Shown here: positions 3,865 through 57,366 of the stretch, piece by piece
Numbering within the stretch: the first letter of the stretch is position 1
How the letters are laid out: each line of letters begins with the position of its first letter
Assembly: GCA_037444405.1 (NCBI GenBank)
Contig: JBBIML010000011.1
Location: forward strand, 4,643 to 68,642
DNA from: Armatimonadota bacterium
Lineage (GTDB): Bacteria; Armatimonadota; Fimbriimonadia; Fimbriimonadales; GBS-DC
Length of the DNA stretch: 64,000 nt
Reading direction: 5' to 3'
The notes under the pieces: generated by a model
What the model saw: the letters and a program-made list of their open reading frames with translations, nothing else
What the model was told of the DNA's origin: nothing
Database searches by the model: none
Made by a program: the position numbers and the translations under genes

Positions 3865-4972
3865 TTCTAGCCCCAGATGACGGGTGAACAGATGCGCGAA
3901 GCTCAAGAAACTTTCGTTTAAGTTCGTGGCTCACAGCACTCTCAGGCTCTTGTAGCAGCAGCTGTTCGTATCTGTTTAAAAATTTTATTCTCAATTCATA
4001 AAATAAATGAATAAAATGTTTTATAAAATTAATACAATCTAAAATCATAAATTCGGTTTCGGATTGCTCTGAAAGTTTTTTAGCATGTTCGTGTACAGCA
4101 GTATCGACAGGAACCGTCGTTACAATCACATATTGCTCGACTTTGATGGCGGTAACCTTTTGCGCCGCTCTATCGAGATCGGCAGGTGTTATTCGACGGG
4201 CTTTCATTTCGTATACAACAGCCATTCGGTTGTCAGTTGCAAACTCTACCTCCAGGTCACCAATCGTGCCTGCCCGAATATCAGCTGCAGTGTGGGGGTG
4301 CAGAGGCTTTGGGCGCTTGCGCAGATATTCTTGTGCAACATCATATGCAGCGGTTATCAGAAGCACCGGTAAGCGACTTGAGCGTCTCGATTCTAAATGC
4401 TTGCTCACAATTTGTATAATAGATTCTGCCGAAAGCTCACTTTGCGTATCGGCTCTCTGAATGAGTAAGCTTATTTGCTGTTGTTGTTCTTTTTTTAACA
4501 AGATAAGCTGTCGGATTACCTCTGTGAGAAGCGCTTTCGCATCCAGCAAGCCATTTTGCACCAGTTGCAACAGGCTAATGAAGGCATCATATGGCTCGCG
4601 CGGTTTACCTGATAGCCGGACATCAGGTTCAAGTGGTTGATTGAATGTGCGAAAAGCGGGCGTCAAAAAGGCTGTGGTCGGATTACAGGGAAGATCATAG
4701 CGGTAAATGAATGGGGTAATATAGCGTTCATCGTAGGTACGCCCGGAGTACGAATCGTCGGTTCCAATCTCGGTGTACGGCTTGCGAATATCCAGCTGCG
4801 GGCGGTGAACCTTTGCCAGTAAACATGCCAGTAAGGCGCGCATTGGCGCACGAGTAGAGCTCTGGCATATCTGCTCTATCAGCTTCACCTCCGCAGGATT
4901 TGTAATCAGGGGTTGATCAGGTCGAGTTGATGCCTCTGTGTAGCACTCCTCGAGGATTTGATCTGGTTCCAT
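3857..4972 (-). CDS. Candidate type II restriction endonuclease (PD-(D/E)XK-like core), partner of the adjacent Dam-family methylase
   Basis: 371 aa counted from ATG 4972, which has AGGAGG 7 nt upstream. IGDLEVEF...VVYEMKAR fits a D...ExK nuclease motif. The ORF overlaps the methylase 3' end by 67 nt. It is strongly AT-rich, especially 3940-4100, compared with its neighbours. No specific REase family was recognised. Confidence 0.55.
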
Positions 4973-5832
4973 TGGATAGCCTCCTGCGGGTCGTAGTTGG
5001 TCCAGAGGACCTCCTGTCGAACCTTCTTGATAGAGTGGCAGATTCGCGGTGGTGCCTCGATGCAGAACCAATCGCGGTAGAGGTGATCCATCAATTCACA
5101 GCGATAGCCAGAAAGCGCGACCTTACCTCTGACACCATGTAAAACTTCTGCCAGCAGGATGTGCTCCTGATCGCTCATTTCATAGGCGTACGCACTTCGA
5201 TCGCCTCGCACCTCGTGAACATAGGGTGGGTCGCAGTAAAAGAGCGTGTCCTCACTGTCATATTTTTGAATAACCTCAACGGCTGGCAGGTTTTCGATCT
5301 GGACGCGAAGCAGACGGTCGGCGATGTAAAACAGCTCCTCGATGCCGCCGAACCAGCGTGAGATAGCGCCTGCCATACCTGCACGGCTGGTGGCGACGCA
5401 ATATGCCCAGCGACCGGGCGAGGCGGTTTGGGCTAAGCCAGTGCGAGTCTGGCGGGCGCGCACATAGAAGCGTCGGGCGCGTTCGAGAACGGATAGCCCC
5501 TCATTGACAGAACTGCAGGCAATTTCTAACTCTTGGCGCGAAAAGGGTGTGAGAGCAATCAGGCGAATCAGTTCATCGGGCTGGTCGCGCAGGACGCGAA
5601 AGAAGTTCACTACCTCGCCGTCAATATCGTTGTAGGTTTCCACTGGCGACGGCTCACGATTGAGCAGCACAGCAGCCGAGCCGCCGAAAGGTTCGCAATA
5701 GTGGTGCGCAGGCGGCAATAGGGGCAGAAGCCAGTCAAGATGGCTGAACTTGCCGCCATACCAGCCAAAAGCGAGCAACCTGCCATTTCGCTTGACAGTC
5801 CCTGCCCCATGCGGCATGCTATTGCCCTCCAT
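4906..5832 (-). CDS. N6-adenine DNA methyltransferase, Dam/D12 class
   Basis: AFGWYGGK...CEPFGGSAAV (FxGxG-like) and FYCDPPYVHE (DPPY) are present. ATG 5832 has GGAGGTG 6 nt upstream. The track ORF extends to 5910, overlapping ltaE. Confidence 0.85.
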   Translation of the reverse strand: MEGNSMPHGAGTVKRNGRLLAFGWYGGKFSHLDWLLPLLPPAHHYCEPFGGSAAVLLNREPSPVETYNDIDGEVVNFFRVLRDQPDELIRLIALTPFSRQELEIACSSVNEGLSVLERARRFYVRARQTRTGLAQTASPGRWAYCVATSRAGMAGAISRWFGGIEELFYIADRLLRVQIENLPAVEVIQKYDSEDTLFYCDPPYVHEVRGDRSAYAYEMSDQEHILLAEVLHGVRGKVALSGYRCELMDHLYRDWFCIEAPPRICHSIKKVRQEVLWTNYDPQEAIQWNQIKSSRSATQRHQLDLINP

Positions 5833-5854
5833 CCAAGCCACCTCCGCAATTATA

Positions 5855-6871
5855 TTACCCAAGCTGTCGGAACGCGCGGATGGCGTAGTCAATGCCTGCA
5901 TCATCCACATCGTGGTGCGTGACGAGGCGCAGGCGGTGCGGATCGAGCGCGATGGTCAGCACGCCCTGCCTGGCGAGCTGCTGCTCCACCTGGGGGGCGG
6001 GACGCGCCGTGCGCACAAAAACGATATTGGTCTGAACGGTTTCCAGGTCGACTTCGAAGCCTGGCAGTTCAGCAATCGCTTCCGCCAGCTGGCGAGCGCG
6101 GCGATGGTCTTCGGCAAGGCGTTCAATCATTGTTTGCAACGCGACGATGCCCGCCGCCGCCAGCACGCCCGCCTGCCGCATGCCGCCCCCGAACAGCTTG
6201 CGCACCCGATGCGCCTCGCGAATGAACTCACGCGAGCCGACCAGCACCGAACCCACAGGGCAGCATAGCCCCTTGGAAAGCGCGAAGAACGCCGAGTCGA
6301 CATGGCGCGTCCACACCTGTGGCGAGACGCCCAGCGCGACGGCTGCATTAAATAGCCGCGCCCCATCTAAATGCACCATCAACCCGCGCCGATGCGCCAG
6401 CCGACAGATTGCCTGAAACTGCTCTGGTGGCAGAATCGTGCCCCCACAGCGGTTGTGGGTGTTTTCCAGGCAGAGCAGTGCCGTGCCGGGCGTGTGATCA
6501 TCGGCGACGCGGATGCGCGCCTCGATCTCGGCAGGGTCAATCCGCCCGCGCGTGATGGGGTACGGCTCCAGCATCACGCCCGACAGCACCGCTGGACCTG
6601 CCAGCTCGTAGTGCAGGATGTGGCTTTCGGCGTCCACCAGCACGGCGTCGCCGGGCTGGGTCCAGACCTTGATAGCGATTTCGTTCGCCATCGTGCCGCT
6701 GGGCACAAAGAGCGCGGCTTCGTGCCCCAGCAGTTCCGCGGCCATCTCCTGCAGGCGATTGACCGTGGGGTCTTCGCCGAACACATCGTCGCCCACTTCG
6801 GCGTCTGCCATCGCCTGACGCATGGCGGGCGTGGGCTTCGTCACGGTATCGGATCGGAGGTCGACTCTCAC
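5855..6871 (-). CDS. ltaE: Low-specificity L-threonine aldolase
   Basis: [21 protein letters not shown]...[12 protein letters not shown]...SGTMANEIA is a canonical LtaE N-terminus. GTG start. Confidence 0.9.
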
Positions 6872-6872
6872 A

Positions 6873-7802
6873 TCAGGAGTTTACCTGTTGAAGGCAGGCA
6901 TCGCGCACGGCATCTAAAGCCTGCTGAACGCCCACTGTTGGCACCACGCCGCAGCCCTGCGCCGGGCGAATGTGCCAGCCCTGTGGCGTGTGAGCGATCT
7001 CTATCCAGAAGTGCTGGGTGAGGTCCTCTTCCACAACCACCACGCGCACCATCGCCACCTGACGGCGCGGGTCGTACAGCATCGCTTTGAAATGCACATG
7101 TACTGGCTCCGATTGATCCTCCAGTTGCAGCCTGTCGGGGTCAAAATGGGGCACACGATGGGTCTGCATCGGTACATCCTCCTTCAGCGGCACGGGCATC
7201 GGCTCCACGCGGCGCAGGGTCAGCTCATAGAAAATCGTCTGTCCGCCAGCGAGCCACTTGCGCTCGTACTTAGTGCCGAAGCTAGGCGGCAGTGTGCGCG
7301 CGTAAGCCACAAAGCCCGTGTCGGTAATCTGGCTCAACACCCAGCTGAAATAGTCGGCGTGGTCGGTGACCACCTGCACCTCGCCGTTCGCCTGCAGGCG
7401 GCTGTTGAGCAGTTGCAGAAACGACTGGCTGAAGAGGCGATATTTGTGGTGATGCTTTTTGGGCCAGGGGCAGGGGAAGAGCGAATAGATGCGGGTGAAC
7501 GATTCGGGCGGGATGGCGCGATAGAGGATGGGCGTCGCGTTGCCCAGCAGCAGGCGAATATTGGGCACCTGTGCCTGCGCGATGCGGCGCAGCGTGCGCT
7601 GAACGCTCTCCCATTCGATCTCGATACCCACAAAGTCGCGTTCAGGGTGCTGGCGGGCGCGGGCGACCAGATAATCGCCATTCCCGAAGCCAATTTCCAG
7701 CTCGCGGGGCGCGTCGCGCCCGAAAATCGCCACCCAGTCCAGCGGGCGTGCCACCTGCTTCCACAAAATCAGCGGGCGCAGCGAGAGATAGGTCGCACGC
7801 AT
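6873..7802 (-). CDS. trmB: tRNA (guanine-N7)-methyltransferase with a C-terminal extension
   Basis: [11 protein letters not shown]...FVGIEI...[15 protein letters not shown] are TrmB motifs. About 100 extra C-terminal residues are present, as in long-form TrmBs. An alternative GTG start exists at 7823. Confidence 0.85.
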
Positions 7803-7806
7803 CGCT

Positions 7807-8466
7807 TCAGACCAGCCCCTCACGCACCGCCAGCAGCGCCGCCTCCGTGCGCGAGTTCACCTGCAACTTGAACAGAATGTTAGAAATGTAGTTTTTAACG
7901 GTCTTCTCGGTGATGAACAGCTCATCGGCGATTTCGCGGTTGCGTTTCCCTGCAGCAATCATCTTCAGGATTTGTAGCTCGCGGGCGGTTAGCTCCGAGA
8001 ACAGGTGGGCAGCCTGAGGCATCCGGGCAGACTGGCGCTGGAACTCGGTAATGATTCGCGCCGCGACGGTCGGATGCAGGATCGATTCGCCATGCGCCGC
8101 GCTGAGGATGCTCTGCACAATCGTGTCAGGCGGGCTGTCTTTGAGCAGGTAGCCAATTGCGCCCGCCTTGATCGCCTCGAACACATTCTGGTCATCGCCA
8201 AAGATAGTCCAGATGACCACCTGCACGCTCGGCAGGGCGCTTTTGATGCGGCGCGTTGCCTCGATGCCGTCCATACGCGGCATCCGGATGTCCATCAGCG
8301 CCACCTGCGGCTCGAACTGCATCGCGAGCTGAACCGCCTGCTCGCCGTCAGCGGCGGAGCCAAGCAAGTCAAGCGAATCGTGGCGCATCAAAATAGCCTG
8401 CAGATGCTCGCGCAGTCGCGCTTCATCCTCCGCGATGATCAGGCGCACCTTCTCTTGCGTTTCCAT
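7807..8466 (-). CDS. Response regulator, NarL/FixJ (LuxR-type HTH) family
   Basis: The receiver domain (VRLIIAEDE...DLLGSAADG...MDIRMPRMDG) is followed by LTARELQILKMIAAGKRNREIADEL. The real start is probably METQEK. The 80 codons upstream in the track are a frame extension overlapping the kinase gene. Confidence 0.9.
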   Translation of the reverse strand: METQEKVRLIIAEDEARLREHLQAILMRHDSLDLLGSAADGEQAVQLAMQFEPQVALMDIRMPRMDGIEATRRIKSALPSVQVVIWTIFGDDQNVFEAIKAGAIGYLLKDSPPDTIVQSILSAAHGESILHPTVAARIITEFQRQSARMPQAAHLFSELTARELQILKMIAAGKRNREIADELFITEKTVKNYISNILFKLQVNSRTEAALLAVREGLV

Positions 8467-40655: not shown

Positions 40656-42293
<1,638 letters not shown>

Positions 42294-42911: not shown

Positions 42912-42977
42912 TAAACGGTGTCATTAGGCTGAGCAGGTCTAATGACCTCATAAATGCGGTCAACGGGAGGAGATACA

Positions 42978-44960
42978 ATGAAAAGCTGGCTGAAGTACCT
43001 GACTGGAGCTGTGGTGTTGATTGTGGTGATCGCGATTGTGCTGGTAGTGCGCAATATGCGCCAGACGGCTCTACCAGCTGGTTTACCTGCAGACGCGCTG
43101 TCAGTTGCACGCGAGCGCGGTCTGACCCCCGACGATGTGTATGCTGCGCTGGCGACCTATGTGCCAGGCGGCAAACCCGACGAGTATGTGATGTTCGCCT
43201 CGGCTGGACACGGCGGACAGGTGATCGCCATCGGCATCCCCTCGATGCGCATTCTGAAGGTGATCGCCGTGTTCGCTCCGGAACCGTGGCAGGGCTATGG
43301 CTATGGTGTGAAGGAGAACCCGCTCCATGAGCTGTACGGGCGTGGTCCCTATCCCGCTGCGGACACGCATCACCCCGCCTTGAGTGAGACCAACGGCGAA
43401 TATGATGGGCAGTTCCTGTTCATCGGTGATAAGGCGAACGGGCGCGTTGCCGTGATCGACCTGCGCGACTGGGAGACCAAGCAGATTGTGAAGAACCCCG
43501 TGTTCGAGAACAACCACGGCGCGGCGTTCGTCACGCCCAACACCGAGTATGTGGTGGAGGTCTCGCAATACGGCTTACCGCTGGGCAACAAATACGCGCC
43601 GATCGAGCGCTACAAGGAGGAGTATCGCGGGCTGATTACTTTCTGGAAGTTCGACCGCAAGAAGGGGCGGATTATCCCGGAGCAGTCGTTCGGCATCGAG
43701 GTGCCGCCTTACTGGCAGGACCTTGCCGATTGCGGTAAGGCTGCCAGCGACGGCTGGGTGTTCGTGAACTCCTTCAACACCGAGCTGGCGACAGGCGGCA
43801 TCGAGAAGGGTCGGCCGCCCTTCGAAGCGGGCGTTTCCCAGAACGACATGGACTACCTCCATATCATCAACTGGAAGCAGGCGGAGAAACTGGTTCAGCA
43901 GGGCAAGTTCGTCACCATTAATGGCTTCAAGGTGCTGCCGCTGAAGGAGGCGGTCGCGGGTGGCGTGCTTTACTTTACTCCTGAGCCGAAAAGCCCGCAC
44001 GGCGTCGATGTGTGCCCCTGCGGGAAGCATATCGTGGTCGGCGGCAAGTTAGACCCGCATGTCACCATCTACAACATCGAGAAGATTAAGCAGGCGATTG
44101 CCCGCAAGGACTACGAGAAGATCGACCCGTACGGTGTGCCCGTGCTGCGATTCGACGCCACCAAAGAGGCGCAGGTGGAGGTGGGGCTGGGACCGCTGCA
44201 CACCCAGTTCGACGACAAGGGCTACGCCTACACCAGCCTGTTCCTGGACACGGCGGTCGCCCGCTGGACGCTGGGCGATTGCAAATACAAAGCGCCGGAA
44301 GAGCCGTGGAAGCTGGTGGGCAAGATTCAGACCCACTACAACATCGGGCACCTCGCCGTAACGGAGGGCGACACGGTCAACCCGCAGGGCAAGTACCTCG
44401 TCGCGCTCAACAAGTGGTCGGTGGACCGCTTTGCGAACGCTGGTCCGCTGCTGCCGCAGAACCTGCAGCTGATTGATGTTAGCAACACGGGCGAGACTAT
44501 GCGCCTGCTGTACGATATGCCTGTGGGCATCGGTGAGCCGCACTATGCCCAGATTATCCGCGCCGACCGCCTGAAGAGCTGGGAGGTCTACCCCGAAGTC
44601 GGCTGGGACGCGCACCAGCAGGCGAAAAGCCCGCATGCCGCGACCAAAGGGCGCGTCGAGGTGCGCGGCAATACCGTCACGATTTACCAGACGCAGATCC
44701 GCAGCCACTTCGAGCCGGAGCATATCAAGGTGAAGAAGGGTCAGCGGGTCATCTGGCATCTTACCAACCTGGAGCGCACGCGCGACGCCACTCACGGCTT
44801 CACCCTGCCCGGCTACGGGATCAGCGCGAGCATCGAACCCGGTGAGACCGTCACGATTGAGTTCGTGGCGGATAAGGAAGGGGTCTACTCCTTCTACTGC
44901 ACGGAGTTCTGCTCCGCGCTGCACCTGGAGATGATGGGCTATCTGCTGGTGGAGCCGTGA
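42978..44960 (+). CDS. nosZ: Nitrous-oxide reductase, clade II (Sec-type/TM N-terminus)
   Basis: Hydrophobic N-terminus MKSWLKYLTGAVVLIVVIAIVLVV has no twin-arginine motif. The beta-propeller His ligands are present, and the C-terminal CuA site reads FYCTEFCSALHLEMMGYLLV. Confidence 0.95.
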   Translation: MKSWLKYLTGAVVLIVVIAIVLVVRNMRQTALPAGLPADALSVARERGLTPDDVYAALATYVPGGKPDEYVMFASAGHGGQVIAIGIPSMRILKVIAVFAPEPWQGYGYGVKENPLHELYGRGPYPAADTHHPALSETNGEYDGQFLFIGDKANGRVAVIDLRDWETKQIVKNPVFENNHGAAFVTPNTEYVVEVSQYGLPLGNKYAPIERYKEEYRGLITFWKFDRKKGRIIPEQSFGIEVPPYWQDLADCGKAASDGWVFVNSFNTELATGGIEKGRPPFEAGVSQNDMDYLHIINWKQAEKLVQQGKFVTINGFKVLPLKEAVAGGVLYFTPEPKSPHGVDVCPCGKHIVVGGKLDPHVTIYNIEKIKQAIARKDYEKIDPYGVPVLRFDATKEAQVEVGLGPLHTQFDDKGYAYTSLFLDTAVARWTLGDCKYKAPEEPWKLVGKIQTHYNIGHLAVTEGDTVNPQGKYLVALNKWSVDRFANAGPLLPQNLQLIDVSNTGETMRLLYDMPVGIGEPHYAQIIRADRLKSWEVYPEVGWDAHQQAKSPHAATKGRVEVRGNTVTIYQTQIRSHFEPEHIKVKKGQRVIWHLTNLERTRDATHGFTLPGYGISASIEPGETVTIEFVADKEGVYSFYCTEFCSALHLEMMGYLLVEP

Positions 44961-45170: not shown

Positions 45171-48100
45171 ATGGCAACAACTGGTCACTGTCCAAGAGAG
45201 GTTCGAAACAAAGTGATGCTGGGCGTCGCGGCGTTGCTGGTGTTCATCTCCATCTGGCTGCCCTACTGGCAGATGCACATCGTCGCGCCGCAGTACCCGA
45301 AAGGGTTGAATGTGATTGTCTATGTAACGGGCGCAGGCGGCGATGTGCGCGAGGTGGATGGACTGAACCACTATATCGGCATGCGTCCACTGGGCGAGGC
45401 GGCGCCTTTTGAACGCAAAATCTCGGTGCCCGGTTTGAGCGCGATTGCGCTTGCGCTGCTTTTCATCATGCTCATTCCGCGCGCCCCACGCTGGTTCCAG
45501 ATTCTGCTGGCGTTGCCCGTGTGGGCGGTTCCGTTCGTGTTCGCAGGCGACCTCTACTACTGGTTGCGTGAATACGGCTTGAATCTGGACCCTAAAGCGC
45601 CGCTGAGCGCGATGATCAAGCCCTTTATCCCGCCGCTGGTCGGACCAGGCAAGGTGGGACAGTTCCATGTGATTGCGTGGTTCCATATCGGCTACTTTGT
45701 GGTGATCGCAGCGGGCGTGCTGACGCTGATTGCCATCCGGCAGCGGTTCCGGTGTGAGCAGTTGCGGCAGGCGGTGCCAGCGATAGCGAAAGCTGCTGCC
45801 GCGCTCCTGCTGATGGTCGTTCTGCCGAACGGCTGGGCGCACGAATGGGTCATCAGCCCACAAAGCGACCAGAGCCTGCAGGCGGTCATCCAGCAGGCGC
45901 GGGCAGGCGACACCATTCGGGTGATTGGCGGCGAATATCGGGGCAACTTCATCGTTGACAAGACGCTCACTCTGGTGGGCGAGCGCTCCCCCGTCCTCGA
46001 CGGCGAGCGGCGGGGGAGCGTCATTCACCTCAAAGCGCCCCGATGCGTCCTCAAGGGCTTCATCATTCGCAACAGCGGTATCACGCTCAGCACCCAGGAT
46101 AGCGGCGTGCGGGTCTCCGCACCCAATTGTATCGTGGAAAACAATCGCATCGAGCAGGTGCTGTTCGGCGTCCATCTGGAGCATGCCGACCGAACAGTTA
46201 TTCGCAATAACGAAATCTATTCGCATGACCTGCCCATCGCTCGACGCGGCGACCAGATTCGAATCTGGTACAGCCACCACACCCTTGTGGAGGGCAATCA
46301 GGTGGTGGGCGGGCGCGATCTGGTCTTCTGGTATTCGGAGGGGCTGACCATCCGCAACAATCGCGTGCGCAACAGCCGCTACGGTATCCACTTCATGTAT
46401 TGTAACGATAGCCATGTGGAGAGCAACCTGCTGGAGAACAACTCGGTGGGCATCTACATTATGTATAGCGAGGGGGTGCAGGTGCGCGGGAATCAGATTC
46501 TGAACTCGCGCGGACCGAGCGGTATGGGGCTGGGCATTAAAGACGGCTACCGCCTGCTGATTGAAAAGAATCTGGTTGCGCACAATCGCACGGGGTTATT
46601 TATTGACAGCGGGGAAGGGGTCTATCGAGAGAACTGGTTTCTGCGCAACGATGTGGGCATCCATCTGGTGTTGGCGGTGAAGCCGAACCGTTTTGAGGCG
46701 AATCGGATGGTGGAGAATATCGAGATGGTGCGGATGGATCGCCCCGATTCGGTGGCGGGCGTGCGCTGGGAGGGCAACTTCTGGAGCGATTACACGGGCT
46801 ATGACGCGAATGGCGATGGCGTCGGCGATGTGCCCTATCGGGCGGTGAGGGTTTTCGATCAGATTGCGGCGCAGAATGCGGCGTTGCGCCTGCTGGCGTA
46901 CAGCCCATCGGCACAGGCGCTCGATTTCGGGGCGCGGCTGTTCCCGCTCTTTGCGCCACAACCGCTGGTGGCAGATGCGCGTCCGCTGGTGCGGGCGGGC
47001 GAGCCGCCACGCCCGATGAGTCCAGCCCAGACACCCTCGCGAGCGAAGGGGCTGCTGTTCATGGCAGGGCTGCTCGCGCTCGGTCTGTTGAGCCTGCGGA
47101 CGCCGGGCACCTCGCGAGCGGGAAAGTACCGCCCCATCACGAATGGAAAGCCATCCCGGAAGTCGCTCATGAGCCGTTCAGCGAAGCCCGCAATGGTGAT
47201 TCGAGTGGAGCATCTGACCCGGCGATTTGGCAGGCTGGTGGCGGTGGATGATCTCACCTTCGGCGTGCGCGCGGGCGAGACGGTCGCGCTCTGGGGCGCG
47301 AATGGCGCGGGCAAGACCACCATCCTGCGCTGCCTGCTCGGACTGCTGCGCTTTGAGGGGTCGGCATCGGTGCTGGGCTATTCGGTCAAACAGCAGGGCA
47401 CCGCTGTCCGTCAGCGTGTCGGCTATGTGCCCCAGCTTGTTCACCTGCATCCCGATATGAGCGTGCAGGAGACCGCCCAATTTTATGCGCAGTTGCGCGG
47501 CGTTTCAGCGGAGCGTGCCGATGCCCTCCTACGGGAGTGGGGCTTGAGCGAGCATGCTGACAAACCCGTGAGCGCGCTCTCTGGCGGCATGAAGCAGAAG
47601 CTTGCGCTGGTACTGGCGCTGCTGTCCGACCCGCCTGTGCTGCTGCTGGATGAGCCGACCGCCCATCTGGACACCGCCGCCCGCGCCGAATGGCTCCAGC
47701 TGCTGCAACGGCTCAAAGCGCAGGGCAAAACGCTGCTGTTCTGCACGCACCAGTTCAACGAGGTGCGCACGCTTGCCGATCGGGTGGTGGTGCTGGAGCG
47801 CGGGCGCAAGGTGGCGGAGCTGACAGGTGCGCAGTTCGTCGCGCTCTGGCAACGGCATGGCAGCCTGCGATTGTCTGTGCCCCAGGAGCAGGTGCAGGTC
47901 GCCATCGGGATTCTCAAGCAAGCAGGCTACGATGCGCAAGCCGTCGACGGTGTCCTGCTGATTCGCCATCTGGAGGCGAAGCAGGTGGAACCGCTCAGCC
48001 GACTGCTGCAGGGAGGCATCGAGGTGCTGGATTACGAGTGGCGTCCGCCCAGCGAGCCGCCCGACTGGAGCCAGATTCCCGAATCGGTACGCTTCGCGGC

Positions 48101-48992
48101 TCTGACCTCCTCACTTGACGATACACACCCCAACCCCCAGCATAAAGGAGAGAAACCCCCCTTGCGGCGTGTGGTGGGGTTAATCGCAGGCAAAGAGATA
48201 CGCGACGCCCGCCGCAACCGCTGGCTGGTGCTGCTGATGGGCGTCTTTATTCTGCTGTCGCTGCTGTTGACCCTGTTCGGGCTGACGGGCGCAGGCGCGG
48301 GCAGCATGGCGGGCTTCGGGCGCACCTTCGCCAGTCTGCTCAACTTATCGCTGTTGATTGTGCCGCTGATGGGACTGCTGATGGGCGCGCTGAGCATCGC
48401 TTCCGAACGCGATCAGCGCACGCTGGACACCCTGCTGGCTCAACCGCTCACCCCCGCGTCGATTCTTGCGGGCAAGCTGCTCGGCGCCATGCTCGCCCTC
48501 AGCGCCGCTGTCCTGATCGGCTTCGGCAGCAGCGGGTTGCTCATCTACATGGCGGGTGCGAATCTGCCCCTGACGCCCTTCCTGACCCAGCTCCTGCTCA
48601 CCATCCTGCTGGGATGGGGCTGCCTGTCGCTGGGCACGCTCGTGTCGGTGCTGGTGAAGCGGGGTGCAACGGCGGTCGGTATCGCCCTCCTGCTTTGGCT
48701 GATGCTGGTGTTCGTCAGCGATCTGGGGCTGATCGGCACAGCCATCGCGCTCCAGCTGAGGGCGTCCACCCTGCTCTGGCTGACCCTGCTCAACCCGCTG
48801 CAGGTGTTCAAGCTTGCCGTGATCCAGGTGATGGAGGGCAATCTGGAGGTGCTGGGTTCGGCAGGGCTGTACGCGCGCGAGGTGATGGGTGATGCGATTT
48901 TACCCATCCTGTCGGGTATCCTTCTGATGTGGGTCGCGGTTCCGTTACTGCTCGCGCTGCTCTGGTTCGTGCGCCGGGGAGCAGTCGAATGA
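45171..48992 (+). CDS. nosDFY: Single ORF fusing NosB-like membrane module + NosD (beta-helix) + NosF (ABC ATPase) + NosY (ABC permease)
   Basis: 1273 codons with no in-frame stop. aa 1-200 contain 4 TM segments. A signal-like LLLMVVLPNGWA/HEW is followed by NosD repeats (IVENNRIEQVLFGVHLE...IRNNRVRNSRYGIHFMY...). MVIRVEHLTRRFG...GANGAGKTT...LSGGMKQK...LLLDEP is NosF. LIAGKEIRDARRNRWLVLL followed by 6 TM segments is NosY. GAGGAGG precedes ATG 45171. Confidence 0.85.
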   Translation: MATTGHCPREVRNKVMLGVAALLVFISIWLPYWQMHIVAPQYPKGLNVIVYVTGAGGDVREVDGLNHYIGMRPLGEAAPFERKISVPGLSAIALALLFIMLIPRAPRWFQILLALPVWAVPFVFAGDLYYWLREYGLNLDPKAPLSAMIKPFIPPLVGPGKVGQFHVIAWFHIGYFVVIAAGVLTLIAIRQRFRCEQLRQAVPAIAKAAAALLLMVVLPNGWAHEWVISPQSDQSLQAVIQQARAGDTIRVIGGEYRGNFIVDKTLTLVGERSPVLDGERRGSVIHLKAPRCVLKGFIIRNSGITLSTQDSGVRVSAPNCIVENNRIEQVLFGVHLEHADRTVIRNNEIYSHDLPIARRGDQIRIWYSHHTLVEGNQVVGGRDLVFWYSEGLTIRNNRVRNSRYGIHFMYCNDSHVESNLLENNSVGIYIMYSEGVQVRGNQILNSRGPSGMGLGIKDGYRLLIEKNLVAHNRTGLFIDSGEGVYRENWFLRNDVGIHLVLAVKPNRFEANRMVENIEMVRMDRPDSVAGVRWEGNFWSDYTGYDANGDGVGDVPYRAVRVFDQIAAQNAALRLLAYSPSAQALDFGARLFPLFAPQPLVADARPLVRAGEPPRPMSPAQTPSRAKGLLFMAGLLALGLLSLRTPGTSRAGKYRPITNGKPSRKSLMSRSAKPAMVIRVEHLTRRFGRLVAVDDLTFGVRAGETVALWGANGAGKTTILRCLLGLLRFEGSASVLGYSVKQQGTAVRQRVGYVPQLVHLHPDMSVQETAQFYAQLRGVSAERADALLREWGLSEHADKPVSALSGGMKQKLALVLALLSDPPVLLLDEPTAHLDTAARAEWLQLLQRLKAQGKTLLFCTHQFNEVRTLADRVVVLERGRKVAELTGAQFVALWQRHGSLRLSVPQEQVQVAIGILKQAGYDAQAVDGVLLIRHLEAKQVEPLSRLLQGGIEVLDYEWRPPSEPPDWSQIPESVRFAALTSSLDDTHPNPQHKGEKPPLRRVVGLIAGKEIRDARRNRWLVLLMGVFILLSLLLTLFGLTGAGAGSMAGFGRTFASLLNLSLLIVPLMGLLMGALSIASERDQRTLDTLLAQPLTPASILAGKLLGAMLALSAAVLIGFGSSGLLIYMAGANLPLTPFLTQLLLTILLGWGCLSLGTLVSVLVKRGATAVGIALLLWLMLVFVSDLGLIGTAIALQLRASTLLWLTLLNPLQVFKLAVIQVMEGNLEVLGSAGLYAREVMGDAILPILSGILLMWVAVPLLLALLWFVRRGAVE

Positions 48993-52295: not shown

Positions 52296-53030
52296 TCACC
52301 ATGGTGTGGGCACGCGGCTCGGATCCTCGATCGCCCGTATCTCCGTTTTGATGCCCCACTGCTGCAGGTCTTTGACCAGCATTTCGGCTTTTCGGCGTGG
52401 CAGGTTGGTCAGAATGACCACGGGCGCACTCTGGAGCAGTTTCTTCACATCGGGTCGGGTGAGCGTGAGGAACGACTCCAGATGGGCGATGGCTTCTTCT
52501 TCCTTCAGGCGTTCCACGCCGAGCAGCACCAGTTCGTAAGGTGTGGGGTCGTCCTGCGGCAGGGGCATAGAGACCTGTGTTTGTGCGGGGGCGACCACGC
52601 TGAACTCGCGCTGGCAATGCTCGCAGATGGCGGTTCGGGCACGGGGTGAGACCTTCTCGGTGGCGCGGCAGTGGGGGCAGCGCACCGTTACCACCTCCAG
52701 CACATGCCCGTTCTCCACCGGCACGAGCCGCCGACAGTGTTCGCAGGTGAAGTCGCTTTGCGGCGGCGCCACGAACACATTCTCCTTCTGGCAGTAGGGG
52801 CAGCTCACGGGATAGGCGGGGATATTGCGCGTTTTATAGAGTGACCAGCCCGCATATGCCCACGAGCCGAGCCACACCAGCCCGAAACCCCATGAGAAGG
52901 AGTGGAACATGCCCCCATAGCGCCAGAACAGCCATGTTAGCAGCAGCATCACCAGCCCCAGCAAACCATAGATGACGGCTTGCGTGTACTCTTTTTCCAC
53001 AGCGTCAGAGCGCTTAACTGGCTCTTCCAC
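52296..53030 (-). CDS. Membrane protein with two zinc ribbons and a ribosomal L7/L12 C-terminal-like domain (hypothetical)
   Basis: GTG 53030 has GGGAGG 8 nt upstream. 2 TM segments; CPYC...CEHC and CPHC...CEHC; C-terminal EEEAIAHLESFLTLTRPDVKKLLQSAPVVILTNLPRRKAEMLVKDLQQWGIKTEI resembles the L7/L12 CTD. The track ORF start at 53210 overlaps acs. Confidence 0.5.
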   Translation of the reverse strand: MEEPVKRSDAVEKEYTQAVIYGLLGLVMLLLTWLFWRYGGMFHSFSWGFGLVWLGSWAYAGWSLYKTRNIPAYPVSCPYCQKENVFVAPPQSDFTCEHCRRLVPVENGHVLEVVTVRCPHCRATEKVSPRARTAICEHCQREFSVVAPAQTQVSMPLPQDDPTPYELVLLGVERLKEEEAIAHLESFLTLTRPDVKKLLQSAPVVILTNLPRRKAEMLVKDLQQWGIKTEIRAIEDPSRVPTPW

Positions 53031-53082
53031 GCTTATCGCCTCCCTGTGGAAAGGGTTCGACCGACTGCCGCGCGATTCCTGC

Positions 53083-55050
53083 CTATTCCTCCTGACCCTC
53101 GTATTTCTCTTTGAGCGCCTGCACGACGGCAGGGTCGGCGAGGGTGGTGGTGTCGCCCAGCGCACGCCCTTCCGCCACATCGCGCAGCAGGCGACGCATA
53201 ATCTTGCCACTGCGCGTTTTGGGCAGGTCGGCAGTGAAGATTATATCGTCGGGTCGGGCAAGCGCGCCGATTTTCGCCACCACATGCTGCTTAAGTTCCT
53301 CGCGCAATCGCTCATCGGCGGTGTAGCCCTCTTTGATAATCACGAAGGCAGCCACCGCCTGGCCCTTGATCTCGTGCGATTTGCCGATGACGGCAGCTTC
53401 GGCGACTGCCGGGTGATCCACCAGCGCGCTTTCGATTTCCATCGTGCTGAGGCGATGCCCCGACACATTGATCACATCGTCCACGCGCCCCAGCAGCCAG
53501 AAGTAGCCGTCCTCGTCGCGCTTGGCGCCGTCGCCCGTGAAATAGATGCCGGGGTACCGGCTCCAGTAGATTTGCTGGAAGCGTTCGGGGTCGCCGTACA
53601 GCCCGCGCGTCATCGCCGGCCAGGGGCGCGTCAGCACCAGATAGCCACCCCTGTTCGGCGGCACCGGGTTGCCCAGCTCATCCAGAATGTCGGGGAACAC
53701 CCCTGGAAACGGCTTGGTGGCGGAACCGGGCTTGGTCGCCACGATGCCTGGCAGCGGGGTGATCAGAATCATGCCCGTTTCGGTCTGCCACCAGGTGTCG
53801 ACAATCGGGCAGCGTCCGCCGCCGATATGCTCGTGGTACCACATCCACGCTTCGGGGTTGATGAGTTCACCGACGGTGCCCAGCAGGCGCAGACTGCTCA
53901 AATCGTGGCGGCGCGGGTACTCTTCGCCCCACTTCATAAAGGCGCGGATGGCAGTCGGCGCGGTGTACAGAATGTTCACCCGATATTTCTCCACTATCGC
54001 CCAGAATCGGTCGCGGTCGGGATAGTCGGGTGCGCCCTCGTAAATCACGCAGGTCACCCCGTTCGCCAGCGGACCGTACACGATGTAGCTGTGCCCTGTA
54101 ACCCAGCCCACATCGGCGGTACACCAGAAGATGTCTTCGTCCTTGAGGTCGAAAACCCATTTGCTGGTGATGGCGACGCCCACGAGATAGCCGCCTGTGG
54201 TGTGCATGATGCCTTTCGGCTTGCCCGTGGAGCCGGAGGTGTAGAGCAGATAGAGCAGGTCTTCGCTGTCCATCGGCTCTGGCTCGCAGGTGAGCGGCGC
54301 GTTCGCCATCAGCTCGTGCCACCAGAGGTCGCGCCCTTCCTGCATCGGCACGGTGTAGTCGCCACCGATACGCTGATAGACAATCACTTTTTCGATGGAG
54401 GGTGTGTTGCGCAGGGCTTCGTCGGCATTGCGCTTGAGCGGCACGATCGAGCCGCGGCGCCAGCCACCATCGGCGGTGATCAGCACCTTCGCCTGCGCGT
54501 CGTTGATGCGGTCAGCGAGGCTCTCCGCGCTGAACCCGCCGAACACCACCGAATGGGGCGCACCGATTCGCGCACACGCCAGCATTGCAATCACCACTTC
54601 GGGGATGAGCGGCAGATAGATACACACACGGTCGCCTTTGCGCACGCCCAGCGCCTTCAGCACATTGGCAAACTTCTGCACCTCGCGATAGAGGTCGTTG
54701 TAGGTCAGCACGCGCTCCTCGCCTGGCTCGCCCTCCCAGATGAGCGCGGCTTTGTTGCGCCGCCATGTCTTCACATGTCGATCCACGCAGTTGTAGCAGG
54801 CGTTCAGCTTGCCGCCGACAAACCACTTCGCATAGGGCGGGTTCCACTCCAGCACCGTGTGCCATCTCTGATACCAGTCGAGAATCTCGGCGCACTTCGC
54901 CCAGAACGCCTCATAGTCGCGCGCCGCCTCTTCATAAATAGCCGCATCGCTGATATTCGCCTGTCGCACGAACTCTTCCGAAGGCGGGAAGACCCGCTGC
55001 TCCTGCAACAACGCCTCAATCGCCATTGTGGTCTGCATCGTCTCCATCAT
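53083..55050 (-). CDS. acs: Acetyl-CoA synthetase (AMP-forming)
   Basis: [18 protein letters not shown], the C-terminal [12 protein letters not shown], and the 655-aa length all fit. Confidence 0.95.
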
Positions 55051-55170
55051 CTCACCTCACAGGGGAACGATTCGCCAGCAGGCAGCCCTTTTCCTGCTTT
55101 ATCTATGCCTCTGGGGGGCGAAACGGGATTTTTCTCCCTCTTGCAGGGAACTCTTGACAGAGGTCTGGGG

Positions 55171-55176
55171 TATAAT
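55171..55176 (+). promoter_or_regulatory. TATAAT -10 box upstream of the ubiquitin-like operon
   Basis: ctcTTGACAgaggtctggggTATAATaggggtgaggtgttgcatATG. The TTGACA is only 11 nt away, so the true -35 is unclear. Confidence 0.4.
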
Positions 55177-55194
55177 AGGGGTGAGGTGTTGCAT

Positions 55195-55395
55195 ATGGCA
55201 ACAAGGAACGCAGTCAAGGAAAAGGTTCGCCTGAACGGCGTCGACTATGAGATCACGCTGACGCCTGCGACCACGAACGACCCGACCACGCTGAACACGC
55301 CGATCACTCCGTCTCAGCCGACCACGCCGCAGGAAGTGGTGCGTCGCGCACCTGCCGTCACCGAGCTGCCGCGCTGGGAGGACGGTATCGGCTAA
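55195..55395 (+). CDS. 66-aa Pro/Thr-rich protein ending in Gly (candidate modifier or adenylation substrate)
   Basis: MATRNAVKEKVRLNGVDYEITLTPATTNDPTTLNTPITPSQPTTPQEVVRRAPAVTELPRWEDGIG-stop. High GC3 codon usage. Lies in the acs/E2 intergenic region, 30 nt upstream of the E2-like gene. In the track it appears only as the tail of the antisense-of-acs ORF. Confidence 0.5.
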   Translation: MATRNAVKEKVRLNGVDYEITLTPATTNDPTTLNTPITPSQPTTPQEVVRRAPAVTELPRWEDGIG

Positions 55396-55425
55396 GCCCT
55401 GGATCGCTGTTGCGGGGATGACACC

Positions 55426-55875
55426 ATGAACGCACGCCTGCAGCGGATCGCCTACGAGGCGGCGCTTGCTGCGACGCACTACTCGCAGACGAAGCAAGCC
55501 TCCTATGACGACGAGGACGGGGAGTGGGTCATTATTCACGACTTTCCGCTCCCCCGCGGCTACAACTACACCACCACCGATGTGCTGATTCTGCTGCCGC
55601 GTCACTACCCCCAGACCCCGCCTGACTGGTTCTATGTGGATTACAACCTGCGCTTAGCGAACGGGCAGCGTCCGCCCCATGTGTTCTATGGCGACACCTC
55701 CTATGACCCCAATCGGGGTCAGTTCCGCGAGGCGCCGCCCGCGCTGAAGGGCTGGACCGCCTGCTGCCTGCACATCCATGAGTGGCGCCCTGCAGCGAAC
55801 CCGCTGGCAGGGCATTCCCTGCTGAGTGTGTGCGAACTCATTAAGAAGGCGTTTGAACGCTGGCGACGCGGGTAG
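55426..55875 (+). CDS. Prokaryotic E2/UBC-like protein
   Basis: 149 aa. GEWVIIHDFPLPRGYNYTTTDVLILLPRHYPQTPPDWFYV...RPPHVFYGD...GWTACCLHIHEWRP resembles bacterial E2 families found next to E1/JAB genes. Candidate catalytic residues are Cys113/Cys114. Confidence 0.7.
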   Translation: MNARLQRIAYEAALAATHYSQTKQASYDDEDGEWVIIHDFPLPRGYNYTTTDVLILLPRHYPQTPPDWFYVDYNLRLANGQRPPHVFYGDTSYDPNRGQFREAPPALKGWTACCLHIHEWRPAANPLAGHSLLSVCELIKKAFERWRRG

Positions 55876-55878
55876 GGA

Positions 55879-57366
55879 GTGGAGCCGTTGCAAGCTCTGT
55901 GTGGCGAGGTACGCATCACGCGCACGCTCTGGACGCGCCTCACCGAAGCGCTTCTCGCTGACCGCTGTGTCGAGACGAAGTGCTTCATGCTGTGTCGCAC
56001 GCTGGAGCTGCCAGGGCGAGCGGTGTTCCTTGTGCGCGAGCTGGTGGAGGTGCCGCCGGACGCCTACGAGGAGCGCTCCGCCAACCGCGTCATCACCCGC
56101 CCGGAGTTCGTGCATACCTTGCTGACGCGCTGCGAAGCGGAGGGCTGGTCGCTGCTGGAAGCCCACTCCCATCCGTGGACGCCCCGACCGCGCTTCTCCT
56201 CGATTGACCACCAGAGCGACTATCAGAAGTTCCGCGTCACCGAGGTGCTATCGCCCCCGTTTCGGCACGGCACGCTGGTGTTCGGCTCCGACATGGGCTT
56301 CGACGGGCACATGTGGGACTATGCGAACCAGCAGGTGGTGCCGATTGAGCGTATTCGCATCGTGGGGCTGCCCTGCGAGACGCGCTATGCGACCGACCTC
56401 GCGCCGCCGGAGCTGGACAAAGCCCAGCGGGAGCTGTACGACCGTCAGGTACGCGCGCTCGGTGTGGAGGGTCAGGCGCTGTTGAGCCACCTGCGCGTGG
56501 CGATTGTGGGCGCGGGCGGGCTTGGCTCCCAGATTGCGCAGGCGCTCACCCTGCTCGGCGTCGGACATCTGACGCTGATCGACCCCGACCGACTGGAGCT
56601 GAGCAATCTGAACCGCATCGTGGGCGCCACCTGGTATCGCGCGATTCGGCGATGGCGCAAGGTGAAAGCGCTCGCGCTCTGGTTCAACCGCGCTCGCAGC
56701 CCCGAATGGCGCACCATCACGCCCCTGCCCGCCGATGCGCGCTCGCCTGAACTGCTGACCACCCTGCTCGAAAGCGATATGCTGATCGGCGCGGTGGACA
56801 GCGCGACCGTGCGCCAGTATCTGAACCTGCTGGCGGTGTGCGCATTAATCCCCTATCTGGACGCGGGTGTCGGTATACGCGCGGAGGCGGGACGCATCGC
56901 GCAGGGCGGCGGACAGGTGCAGCTCATCCTGCCGGGCGAGACCGCCTGCCTCAGCTGTGTCGGGCATCTGGTGCGCCAGAGCGTGGAAGAACAGCTCACC
57001 CCTGAACAGCGTGCCATGTCGATCCAGCATGGCTACATTCAGGGCGAGCGGATACCCAACCCGCAGGTGGTGTTCCTGAACGGCGTCGTGGCAAACCTGC
57101 TGGTGTGGGAGTTCGTGAAGCTGACCACGGGTTGCCTGCCCGCGCAGCCGTATGTCTATTACGACCTGGTGGCACAGCAGGCGTTCCCTGCCGAAGCCGA
57201 ACGCAATCCGAACTGCTTCCTCTGTTCCTATGAGGCAGGTAGCCTGCTGGCAACCGGGCTGGACGGCATCAATGGCTACCTGAAGCCGCCCCGCCAGAAG
57301 GCGCCGCCCGTGCCACGATCCCGAAGCGAATCTCCATCCCCTGACACGGAGGAGAGACCCGCATGA
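55879..57366 (+). CDS. JAB/MPN metalloprotease fused to an E1-like (ThiF/MoeB) adenylation domain
   Basis: N-terminus: E...EAHSHPWTPRPRFSSID (HxH...SxxD JAMM-like). C-terminal half: VAIVGAGGLGSQIA (GxGxxG), DPDRLELSNLNR, DAGV, and the CxxC pairs CLSC and CFLC. Start is 55879 (GTG) or 55888 (TTG). Confidence 0.85.
   Translation: MEPLQALCGEVRITRTLWTRLTEALLADRCVETKCFMLCRTLELPGRAVFLVRELVEVPPDAYEERSANRVITRPEFVHTLLTRCEAEGWSLLEAHSHPWTPRPRFSSIDHQSDYQKFRVTEVLSPPFRHGTLVFGSDMGFDGHMWDYANQQVVPIERIRIVGLPCETRYATDLAPPELDKAQRELYDRQVRALGVEGQALLSHLRVAIVGAGGLGSQIAQALTLLGVGHLTLIDPDRLELSNLNRIVGATWYRAIRRWRKVKALALWFNRARSPEWRTITPLPADARSPELLTTLLESDMLIGAVDSATVRQYLNLLAVCALIPYLDAGVGIRAEAGRIAQGGGQVQLILPGETACLSCVGHLVRQSVEEQLTPEQRAMSIQHGYIQGERIPNPQVVFLNGVVANLLVWEFVKLTTGCLPAQPYVYYDLVAQQAFPAEAERNPNCFLCSYEAGSLLATGLDGINGYLKPPRQKAPPVPRSRSESPSPDTEERPA

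Follow-up and report, generated by a model that had tools for sequence, protein, structure and literature searches.

A candidate modifier without a ubiquitin fold in a Bub-related four-gene cassette of Armatimonadota

The window analysed here, a 64-kb stretch of contig JBBIML010000011.1 from an Armatimonadota bacterium, carries a cassette of four co-directional, tightly packed genes, which encode, in this order, a mini-protein of 66 amino acids (aa), an enzyme of the ubiquitin-conjugating type (E2), a fusion of a JAB peptidase domain with an enzyme of the ubiquitin-activating type (E1), and a zinc protein with a double CxxC…HxxC pattern. We propose, with a probability that we put at roughly 0.6, that the mini-protein is a conjugated tag, or at least a dedicated E1 substrate, of this cassette, which is related to the bacterial ubiquitination-like (Bub) systems. 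In its stronger form the proposal is that a largely disordered mini-protein of ~50-65 residues is activated by the E1 and conjugated to targets by the E2, being the first E1/E2 tag that lacks the ubiquitin fold, and that it came about in the Bub lineage when the ubiquitin-like modifier (Ubl) was replaced or drastically reduced, in company with an E2 that either exchanged Ser for Cys or retained Cys; here the chances seem to us even. The first-pass annotation, made from the sequence alone, had suggested a non-beta-grasp modifier for the same open reading frame (ORF), and this candidate has held up: the ORF occupies the Ubl slot of an E2/JAB-E1 operon, only a hairpin is predicted in its product, and the smallest homologue has 50 aa.

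The mini-protein gene and its conservation

The ORF is present where it had been annotated (Table 1), and its product, MATRNAVKEKVRLNGVDYEITLTPATTNDPTTLNTPITPSQPTTPQEVVRRAPAVTELPRWEDGIG, ends in WEDGIG immediately before the stop codon. Taken by itself, such an ORF is what chance would be expected to give, because 136 ORFs of at least 40 aa occur in the surrounding 16 kb and because the same frame stays open for 807 codons (52972..55395) antisense to the acetyl-CoA synthetase gene acs (53083..55050); therefore, the case for a gene has to be comparative. The 807-aa ORF of this frame was itself rejected as an artefact of antisense acs. Another ORF, of 168 aa (55099..55605) and antisense to the mini-protein gene, was also rejected: it is open only as the antisense of a gene with high G+C content at third codon positions (GC3), and stops interrupt it in the related loci L001 and L032. 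The GC3 of the mini-protein ORF is 0.79 as compared to 0.78-0.81 in the neighbouring genes, in agreement with the earlier remark that its third positions are as G/C-rich as those of the real genes. Searches of Pfam and PADLOC assigned the mini-protein to no family, and tblastn revealed neither a second copy of it nor a canonical Ubl in the window.

For comparison, 36 genome loci (33 of them from Armatimonadota, L001 included) were fetched through the E2; the family of the mini-protein was recovered by tblastn on the loci fetched in this way and then by profile searches. Eight metagenome loci were examined as well. A homologous ORF of 50-78 aa was found directly upstream of the E2 gene in 41 of 41 related loci (33 genome and 8 metagenome ones). 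In all 33 Armatimonadota loci, treated by tblastn and ORF extraction, the homologue has 57-78 aa and ends 0-90 nt before the E2 start. The first-pass annotation had advised looking upstream of E2/JAB-E1 homologues for a conserved small ORF with a C-terminal Gly; the conserved ORF was found, but the final Gly of the window ORF, Gly66, is shared only with the same-species locus L002. As to loss or frameshifts in relatives that keep the E2 and E1 genes, which the first-pass annotation had named as a refutation, the outcome favours the gene: the ORF is retained at all 41 loci, one of which (L023) has an in-frame stop. This stop lies inside the hairpin (…KIND-stop-EFEI…) of an ORF at 3403-3597 of L023, which is otherwise identical to that of L027; an error of assembly, recent pseudogene formation or recoding could each account for it.

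The mini-protein ORF is kept across E2 divergence down to ~50% identity, with pairwise ratios of nonsynonymous to synonymous substitution rates (dN/dS) of 0.08-0.34 (15 pairs), and a GGAGG-like Shine-Dalgarno sequence is kept 6-10 nt before the ATG of the homologues. On this comparative evidence we regard the ORF as a real gene under purifying selection, which is always the first one in the cassette; the claim that it is translated, made earlier from codon composition, gains support from its conservation, low dN/dS and retained Shine-Dalgarno sequence.

A single-sequence protein search retrieved only the mini-protein itself and one relative with 69% identity, whose C-terminus is WEDGGVH and whose locus has an identical gene order. 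This search understated the conservation because of its word index and because of small ORFs left uncalled. An indexed profile search yielded 49 proteins (52-97 aa), all of which lack Pfam domains, while an exhaustive hidden Markov model (HMM) search among 1.84 billion cluster representatives yielded 22 clusters, 21 of them of 50-85 aa; the members with intact C-termini end in WEDG plus a tail of 0-6 aa. The weakest of the 22 clusters, P0093 (402 aa, E 9e-4), was discarded as an unrelated repeat protein. The genes of the distant members P0082, P0084, P0087, P0088 and P0090 each lie directly upstream of a Prok-E2_E gene, and behind the latter comes a gene for ThiF or JAB-E1 in all these loci except that on the shortest contig, L040. 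The cassette is found in Fimbriimonadales/Armatimonadota and in a few related metagenomic lineages. No relatives of the E2 were detected in IMG/VR viral contigs, which leaves a phage origin unsupported, and a description of the mini-protein family was not found in the searchable literature.

Gly64, the fold of the mini-protein and the enzymes encoded next to it

The mini-protein consists of an N-terminal hairpin, a linker variable in length and sequence, and a conserved C-terminal segment. The hairpin pattern V-x-V-N/D…phi-x-phi is kept in both family alignments (A2 and A5), the consensus being (V/I)-x-E-K-V-x-(V/I/L)-N-x-x-E-(F/Y)-E-I-x-L-x-P, and roughly 10-30 residues separate it from the C-terminal motif with the consensus E-(V/I)-(L/V)-x-R-(V/A)-P-(A/S)-(V/I)-x-x-L-P-R-W-E-D-G. 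Among 36 diverse family members P59, D63 and G64 are invariant, while L58, W61 and E62 are conserved in at least 90%. After the Gly, about 70 homologues have an unconserved tail of 0-6 residues, which is IG in the window and GVH, GLR, AF, AY, AN, ATKR, ATE, TC, GGDA, GANA, GC, GY, AC, AR, APA, ASF, C, I, EA, ERA, GKR, YEP or HAGDVR in others, and five homologues (P0077, P0081, P0084, P0087 and P0088) end exactly at WEDG. Because the Gly is invariant, the tail is variable and these five members stop at WEDG, Gly64 is the predicted functional C-terminus.

It had been proposed that the ORF ends directly at the Gly to be activated and that no processing would be needed. This does not stand, the invariant residue across about 70 homologues being G64 and IG being a variable tail. 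Gly66 is found among them only in the window protein and in the near-identical L002 (95% identity), the aligned position being occupied elsewhere by H, R, F, Y, N, C or A or by nothing, and judging from these alignments it should be regarded as incidental. Ubl precursors classically show this arrangement, in which a dispensable tail comes after an invariant Gly, and it is consistent with trimming by the JAB peptidase of the operon, by analogy with Citrobacter, where the JAB domain of BubCD cuts BubAB immediately after the conserved Gly, whereupon the Ubl is conjugated by the Bub E1 and E2 (PMC11601596).

As for the fold, AlphaFold2 in two runs (with alignments of 26 and 36 sequences) produced a hairpin plus coil only, at a predicted local distance difference test score (pLDDT) of 67-68 and a predicted template modelling score (pTM) of 0.23-0.24, i.e., with low confidence. 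These models agree with the first-pass annotation in that only the N-terminal part is hairpin-like (strands 7-13 and 16-22, and nothing else) and that the middle part is of low complexity and probably disordered: 6 Pro and 9 Thr occur in the 24 residues 23-46, which are predicted as coil. A Foldseek search of the PDB with the model gave no match at E<1 (the best one had E 3.7), and comparison of the mini-protein family with Multi_ubiq of Pfam gave no signal. Alignment of the mini-protein profile (A2) to a Ubl profile (A4) by hhalign had a probability of 1% and an E-value of 0.05 and covered the hairpin only; by this comparison, homology of the mini-protein and Ubls is neither shown nor excluded. 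In the smallest member, P0088 (50 aa), just 11 residues, 4 of them Pro, separate the hairpin from the C-terminal motif; therefore, no room is left for a beta-grasp helix together with strands beta3 and beta4. The conclusion that the mini-protein is not a beta-grasp is strong but not absolute, and as to its origin, it may be either a Ubl cut down to beta1-beta2 and the C-terminal tail or an unrelated replacement.

The slot of the mini-protein is that of a beta-grasp Ubl in distant relatives. In loci L034-L036 (Omnitrophota, Planctomycetales) a Ubl of 81-99 aa is encoded in this slot, before E2, JAB and E1; these Ubls match Pfam Multi_ubiq (PF14452) with E-values of 5e-5 to 4e-4, just under the gathering cut-off, and end in …PRFRRG-stop. 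In L037 a Ubl-E2 fusion stands beside a JAB-E1 fusion, as in Type I Bub. Apart from the operon slot, the mini-protein shares with the Multi_ubiq Ubls of L034-L036 the single C-terminal Gly after a basic/aromatic tail (…LPRWEDG vs …APRFRRG) and the N-terminal V-N-x-x-G hairpin pattern; unlike these beta-grasp proteins, it has no Pfam match, nor does the hhalign probability cited above point to them. A conserved Gly combined with adjacent E2 and JAB-E1 genes is the feature that it has in common with ubiquitin, SAMPs and Multi_ubiq. The Ubls of the described Bub and Bil systems contain one to three beta-grasp domains (PMC11601603).

The E2 gene starts 30 nt downstream of the mini-protein gene. 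The best PDB match of the E2 profile is Citrobacter BubB (9eae_C, E 1.7e-9), and the window E2 shares its Pfam family, Prok-E2_E, with those of the Ubl-bearing loci L034-L037. Its catalytic column reads C-L-H, as against S333-x-H335 in BubB, where S333 and H335 are catalytic (PMC11601596). Within the clade with WEDG termini, Cys occupies the nucleophile column in most members, often as a CC doublet; Ser is found only in the clade members L032 and L033 (GSLH) and in the classical L034-L036 (FSWH). This Cys/Ser switch provides a natural comparison of thioester and oxyester chemistry in an E2 family that otherwise works via oxyesters. A fusion of the mini-protein with the E2 by read-through of the stop codon, which would mimic BubAB, was considered and rejected: in the window, L001 and L006 both genes are in one reading frame, but in L003 and L012 their frames differ.

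The best match of the JAB-E1 protein in a phmmer search of the PDB is Citrobacter BubCD (9ea4_A, E 9.6e-24, query residues 12-425 against chain residues 10-408); catalytic residues were mapped by offsetting the chain numbers to the numbering of Ye et al. (PMC11601596). Given these best matches and the mapped residues, the enzymes are of the Bub type (Aravind class 6e; PMC1779556), with intact active sites and a Cys E2. In Type I Bub the invariant crossover-loop Tyr (Y370) acts as nucleophile and the E1 has no catalytic Cys; this Tyr is kept in the window E1 as Y386. Two CxxC pairs of the E1, CLSC (residues 357-360) at the start of the crossover loop and CFLC (446-449), are kept in L036 and L042 and are absent from Citrobacter BubCD; they probably form a structural Zn site of the MoeB/ThiF/UBA5 type, a Cys nucleophile being the alternative reading of their sequence. 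MccB is also among the PDB matches of the JAB-E1 protein (E 2e-5). The E1-E2 models of PADLOC match only residues about 170-370 of it, i.e., the E1 domain, and PADLOC gave no match on the E2.

Several assemblies of Fimbriimonadales contain, besides a full cassette (L016, L025, L024, L012, L021, L030), an orphan module made up of the mini-protein and E2 genes and lacking a JAB-E1 gene (L018, L019, L020, L022, L028, L029, L031); in L022 and L029 the zinc protein gene follows directly after E2. The complete genome AP024673.1 likewise has one full and one orphan cassette. The co-occurrence of an orphan module and a full cassette in one assembly implies that the E1 of the latter acts in trans.

Known systems, a possible mechanism and alternative explanations

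Type I Bub, the bacterial ubiquitination-like system of Aravind class 6e/6E.1, consists of BubAB, BubCD and BubE (Ye et al., bioRxiv 2024, PMC11601596; Iyer et al. 2006, PMC1779556). The window cassette resembles it in the N-terminal fusion of JAB to the E1, whose homology to BubCD spans the full length, in the retained JAMM residues, adenylation Arg and crossover-loop Tyr, in an E2 that has BubB as its best PDB match and keeps the catalytic Asp and His, in the order modifier, E2, JAB-E1, with a small metal-binding protein at the end of the operon, and in residues after the conserved Gly that can be removed (here, removal is predicted). It differs in that the modifier is a separate protein of 50-78 aa without beta-grasp, whereas BubA has one to three such domains (PMC11601603) and is fused to BubB; in that the E2 nucleophile position is Cys and not the invariant Ser of BubB; and in that the last gene encodes the double CxxC…HxxC protein and not the DUF6527 serine protease BubE. 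Hence the enzymes belong with Type I Bub/6e, while four features that define it (beta-grasp, E2 fusion, Ser nucleophile and BubE) are lacking.

In the action of E1 and E2 on a C-terminus without ubiquitin fold, the nearest functional precedent is the Type II cyclic oligonucleotide-based antiphage signalling system (CBASS), in which Cap2 acts as E1/E2 on the disordered C-terminal tail of a protein that is not of the ubiquitin fold and the JAB peptidase Cap3 trims or reverses the products; related E1s can thus do without a beta-grasp substrate. There, however, the substrate is the cGAS-like signalling enzyme itself, E1 and E2 are fused and JAB is separate, whereas here the E2 is separate, the JAB is fused to the E1 and the substrate would be a dedicated mini-protein; no cGAS-like nucleotidyltransferase (CD-NTase) was found in the cassette. 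The likeness to Pup, drawn in the first-pass annotation, is partial. Pup (about 60 aa) is also a small disordered tag with a conserved C-terminal motif, and in some species it needs processing before ligation, so that this part of the comparison stands. The other part fails: Pup ends in GGQ or GGE, Dop deamidates it, and PafA, an enzyme resembling glutamine synthetase, then ligates it via the side chain of Glu, without E1, E2 or JAB, whereas the mini-protein ends in WEDG plus a tail, its operon encodes E2, JAB-E1 and a Zn protein and no Pup machinery, and the two sequences are dissimilar.

The mechanism that we suppose, proceeding from these analogies, is as follows. The JAB domain would trim the 66-aa precursor right after Gly64, removing IG; the E1 domain would then bind the extended RAPAVTELPRWEDG tail and adenylate Gly64, with the N-terminal hairpin serving as a second element of docking to the E1 in place of the beta-grasp body. 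The acyl group should pass to Cys114 of the E2, possibly via the crossover-loop Tyr386 as in Bub, and the E2 would hand the tag over to an amine of the target; the zinc protein could be an adaptor, an E3 (ligase) or a substrate.

Several points weigh against this proposal. Adenylation, cleavage and conjugation are all deduced from homology and gene order. To our knowledge, the dedicated modifiers of E1-E2 cascades (ubiquitin, SUMO, NEDD8, UFM1, ATG8/12, URM1, SAMPs, BilA and BubA) all have the beta-grasp fold, which is generally viewed as part of cargo recognition by E1, E2 and deubiquitinating enzymes, and because no dedicated E1/E2 tag without it is known, the E1 might not recognise the mini-protein. 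The C-terminus is Asp-Gly, the usual form being Gly-Gly. BubCD supports BubA by a beta-hairpin (residues 312-328), and the window E1 has a version of this hairpin that lacks ~5 residues; therefore, recognition of the Ubl may differ. The low confidence of the AlphaFold2 models means that the mini-protein may fold on binding or have a fold unseen by the prediction, and a canonical Ubl, of which the 64-kb window has none, is possible elsewhere in the genome. Finally, BubE (DUF6527) is, as far as we know, part of all described Bub operons, but it is absent from the cassette, whose fourth protein did not match PF20137 (DUF6527) at E<=0.1.

It is unlikely, though some of these points would fit it, that the mini-protein is a partner that is not transferred itself, for example one that inhibits the enzymes or poses as their substrate, helps in assembly or confers specificity, and that binds the E1 or E2 via its WEDG tail, while the acyl donor is something else, such as a Ubl from another part of the genome or, as in CBASS, some other protein's C-terminus. 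Such a role would suit both a protein devoid of the beta-grasp body that E1s normally grip and a C-terminus with Asp-Gly instead of Gly-Gly, and the orphan modules of mini-protein, E2 and, in some cases, the Zn protein show tight pairing of the first two in the absence of an E1 gene. These modules, however, can use the E1 of the same assembly (L020/L024, L012/L022, L019/L025); besides, the mini-protein sits exactly in the Ubl slot, with no Ubl in the window, and an invariant Gly, at which some members end and which in others bears a disposable tail, is the signature of an activated C-terminus and not of a binding motif.

That the mini-protein is a modifier activated without processing, at Gly66, in this particular species we hold to be improbable: the window protein and its 95%-identical counterpart in L002 do both end in Gly, but this residue is present in 2 of about 70 homologues against the invariant G64, and the JAB active site appears, from its residues, to be intact.

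The first-pass annotation had also considered a peptide substrate of an MccB-type pathway for ribosomally synthesized and post-translationally modified peptides (RiPPs). In such a reading the peptide C-terminus would be adenylated for modification, in the manner of MccB or by thiocarboxylate formation, and not for conjugation to proteins. Indeed, ThiF-family enzymes treat MccA of microcin C7 in this way, MccB, itself of the ThiF fold, having the C-terminus of a short ribosomal peptide as its substrate; the PDB matches include MccB, and the mini-protein is small and largely unstructured. But MccB, which works without E2 and JAB, carries a peptide clamp as its N-terminal domain and has as substrate a heptapeptide with Asn at the end, whereas the window enzyme, an orthologue of BubCD (E 1e-23, as against 2e-5 for MccB), carries a JAB domain in place of the clamp, never lacks an E2 partner with the catalytic set D/C(S)/H, and has next to it a precursor ending in Gly. 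Moreover, no transporter, immunity or tailoring gene is present in the cassette, and the family combines a conserved C-terminal end with a variable middle, in reverse of the common layout of conserved leader and variable core. A RiPP-like precursor is, therefore, very improbable. Finally, the notion that the ORF is what remains, in decay, of a beta-grasp Ubl of the ancestor, or else a chance ORF or an upstream leader, without protein function in any of these cases, for which one could cite the frequency of ORFs of this size in GC-rich DNA and the hairpin as the only place where hhalign produced an (insignificant) alignment to the Ubl profile, appears to be effectively refuted by the low dN/dS, the invariant C-terminal residues and the kept Shine-Dalgarno sequence, along with the interruption of the antisense ORF in relatives and the lack of Rfam matches in a scan of 54800-55600.

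With a clade that keeps E1, E2 and JAB but has a mini-protein in the Ubl slot, one could test how much of ubiquitin is required for activation and transfer: a hairpin and a tail of roughly 15 residues may suffice for both. If active, the cassette would represent a tagging system of small size that might be turned into a tool; should the mini-protein turn out not to be conjugated, a new type of regulator binding E1 and E2 would be at hand.

The fourth gene, the promoter region and the surroundings

The coordinates of the features discussed are collected in Table 1.

Table 1. Features of the cassette and its upstream region (positions in the 64-kb window; residue numbers refer to the respective proteins).
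Feature	Position	Strand	Remarks
Candidate promoter region	55146..55176	+	GGGAAC 55146-55151, ~18 nt upstream of GGGTATAAT; TATAAT 55171-55176
Shine-Dalgarno-like GAGGTG	55183..55188	+	6 nt before ATG, read from sequence
Mini-modifier gene (candidate)	55195..55395	+	ATG 55195, TAA 55393-55395; 66 aa plus stop
N-terminal beta-hairpin VKEKVRLNGVDYEITL, aa 7-22	55213..55260	+	AlphaFold2 strands 7-13 and 16-22 in both runs
Pro/Thr-rich linker, aa 23-46	55261..55332	+	variable in length and sequence; coil, pLDDT ~60
Conserved C-terminal segment EVVRRAPAVTELPRWEDG	55333..55386	+	LPRWEDG 55366-55386, Gly64 codon 55384-55386
Two-residue tail IG	55387..55392	+	predicted to be removed; matches variable-tail position of the family
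E2 gene, 149 aa, BubB-like	55426..55875	+	Pfam Prok-E2_E, E 4e-14
Predicted catalytic D67 of E2	55618-55635 (PPDWFY)	+	aligned to BubB D299
Predicted catalytic C114 and H116 of E2	55762-55773 (CCLH)	+	column of S-x-H motif
JAB-E1 fusion gene, 495 aa, BubCD-like	55879..57366	+	Pfam ThiF E 3e-36; weak N-terminal Prok-JAB
JAMM residues E32, H96, H98, S107, D110	56164-56208 (HSHP…FSSID)	+	E32/D110 = BubCD E28/D104
ATP loop GAGGLGS	56509-56529	+	in JAB-E1
R246, in NLNR of JAB-E1			aligned to adenylation R227 of BubCD
CxxC pairs of JAB-E1, aa 357-360 and 446-449	56947..56958, 57214..57225	+
Crossover-loop Tyr386	57031-57045 (GYIQG)	+	aligned to BubCD Y370, GYITG
Fourth gene, 138 aa	57363..57779	+	overlaps E1 stop by 4 nt

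The fourth protein has the N-terminus KPIPENRRW, an acidic linker and two CxxC…HxxC repeats resembling zinc ribbons or treble clefs. Its gene is kept after JAB-E1 in 21 loci. The conserved form of the N-terminal motif is M(A)KPIPxNRRW, and the two repeats read ARY-G-x-C-x-x-C…ITRH…WVH-x-x-C. The Pfam scores are all sub-threshold (zf-ANAPC11, i.e., RING-H2, 8e-5; DUF2175, 2e-5; PHD, 7e-3). The zinc protein is a candidate adaptor, E3 or target/substrate, and its IPxNRR N-terminus has the appearance of a short motif for docking or targeting. The corresponding genes lie at 10174-10659 in L001, 4503-4928 in L022, 5895-6596 in L032 and 4196-4702 in L042; in L032, L033 and L042 the N-terminal motif, as IPxN(R/P)R, stands on a membrane or low-complexity protein instead.

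The flanking genes are not conserved between lineages, acs and an amidohydrolase gene being common only to the window and the same-species locus L002; since the flanks differ, the shared unit is the four-gene cassette, which is self-contained. A GGGAAC(Y)YTT box together with GTATAAT, similar to the candidate promoter region of Table 1, is also present upstream of the mini-protein ORF in L001, L003, L004, L020, L026, L029 and L030, and the genes flanking these box-bearing loci are unrelated. The box region may be a promoter or operator specific to the cassette. Its -35 element resembles that of extracytoplasmic function (ECF) sigma factors. A scan for consensus sigma-70 promoters found none on the + strand, and a sigma-70 promoter composed of TTGACA (55154-55159) and TATAAT was rejected for its spacing of just 11 nt. 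In L006 and L012 a palindrome, CTGGAAACTTTTCCAG, occurs at the equivalent upstream site.

Regulators of the CapK/CapS type or other defence regulators were not seen beside the cassette. In L042 the cassette is followed, at 4746-8325, by genes of a DUF87/HerA-like ATPase and of a protein with an ARPP-1 domain, so that these surroundings may be a conflict-system neighbourhood, and in L041 (256-1840) it is preceded by the gene of a second ThiF protein, of 438 aa and without JAB, and by an ORF of 69 aa with …RFNRD as its end. Elsewhere in the window are groEL (40656..42290, - strand), a nosZ-like nitrous-oxide reductase gene (42954..44960, + strand) and a very long ORF of a nosD/ABC-ATPase/permease-like fusion (45171..48992, + strand).

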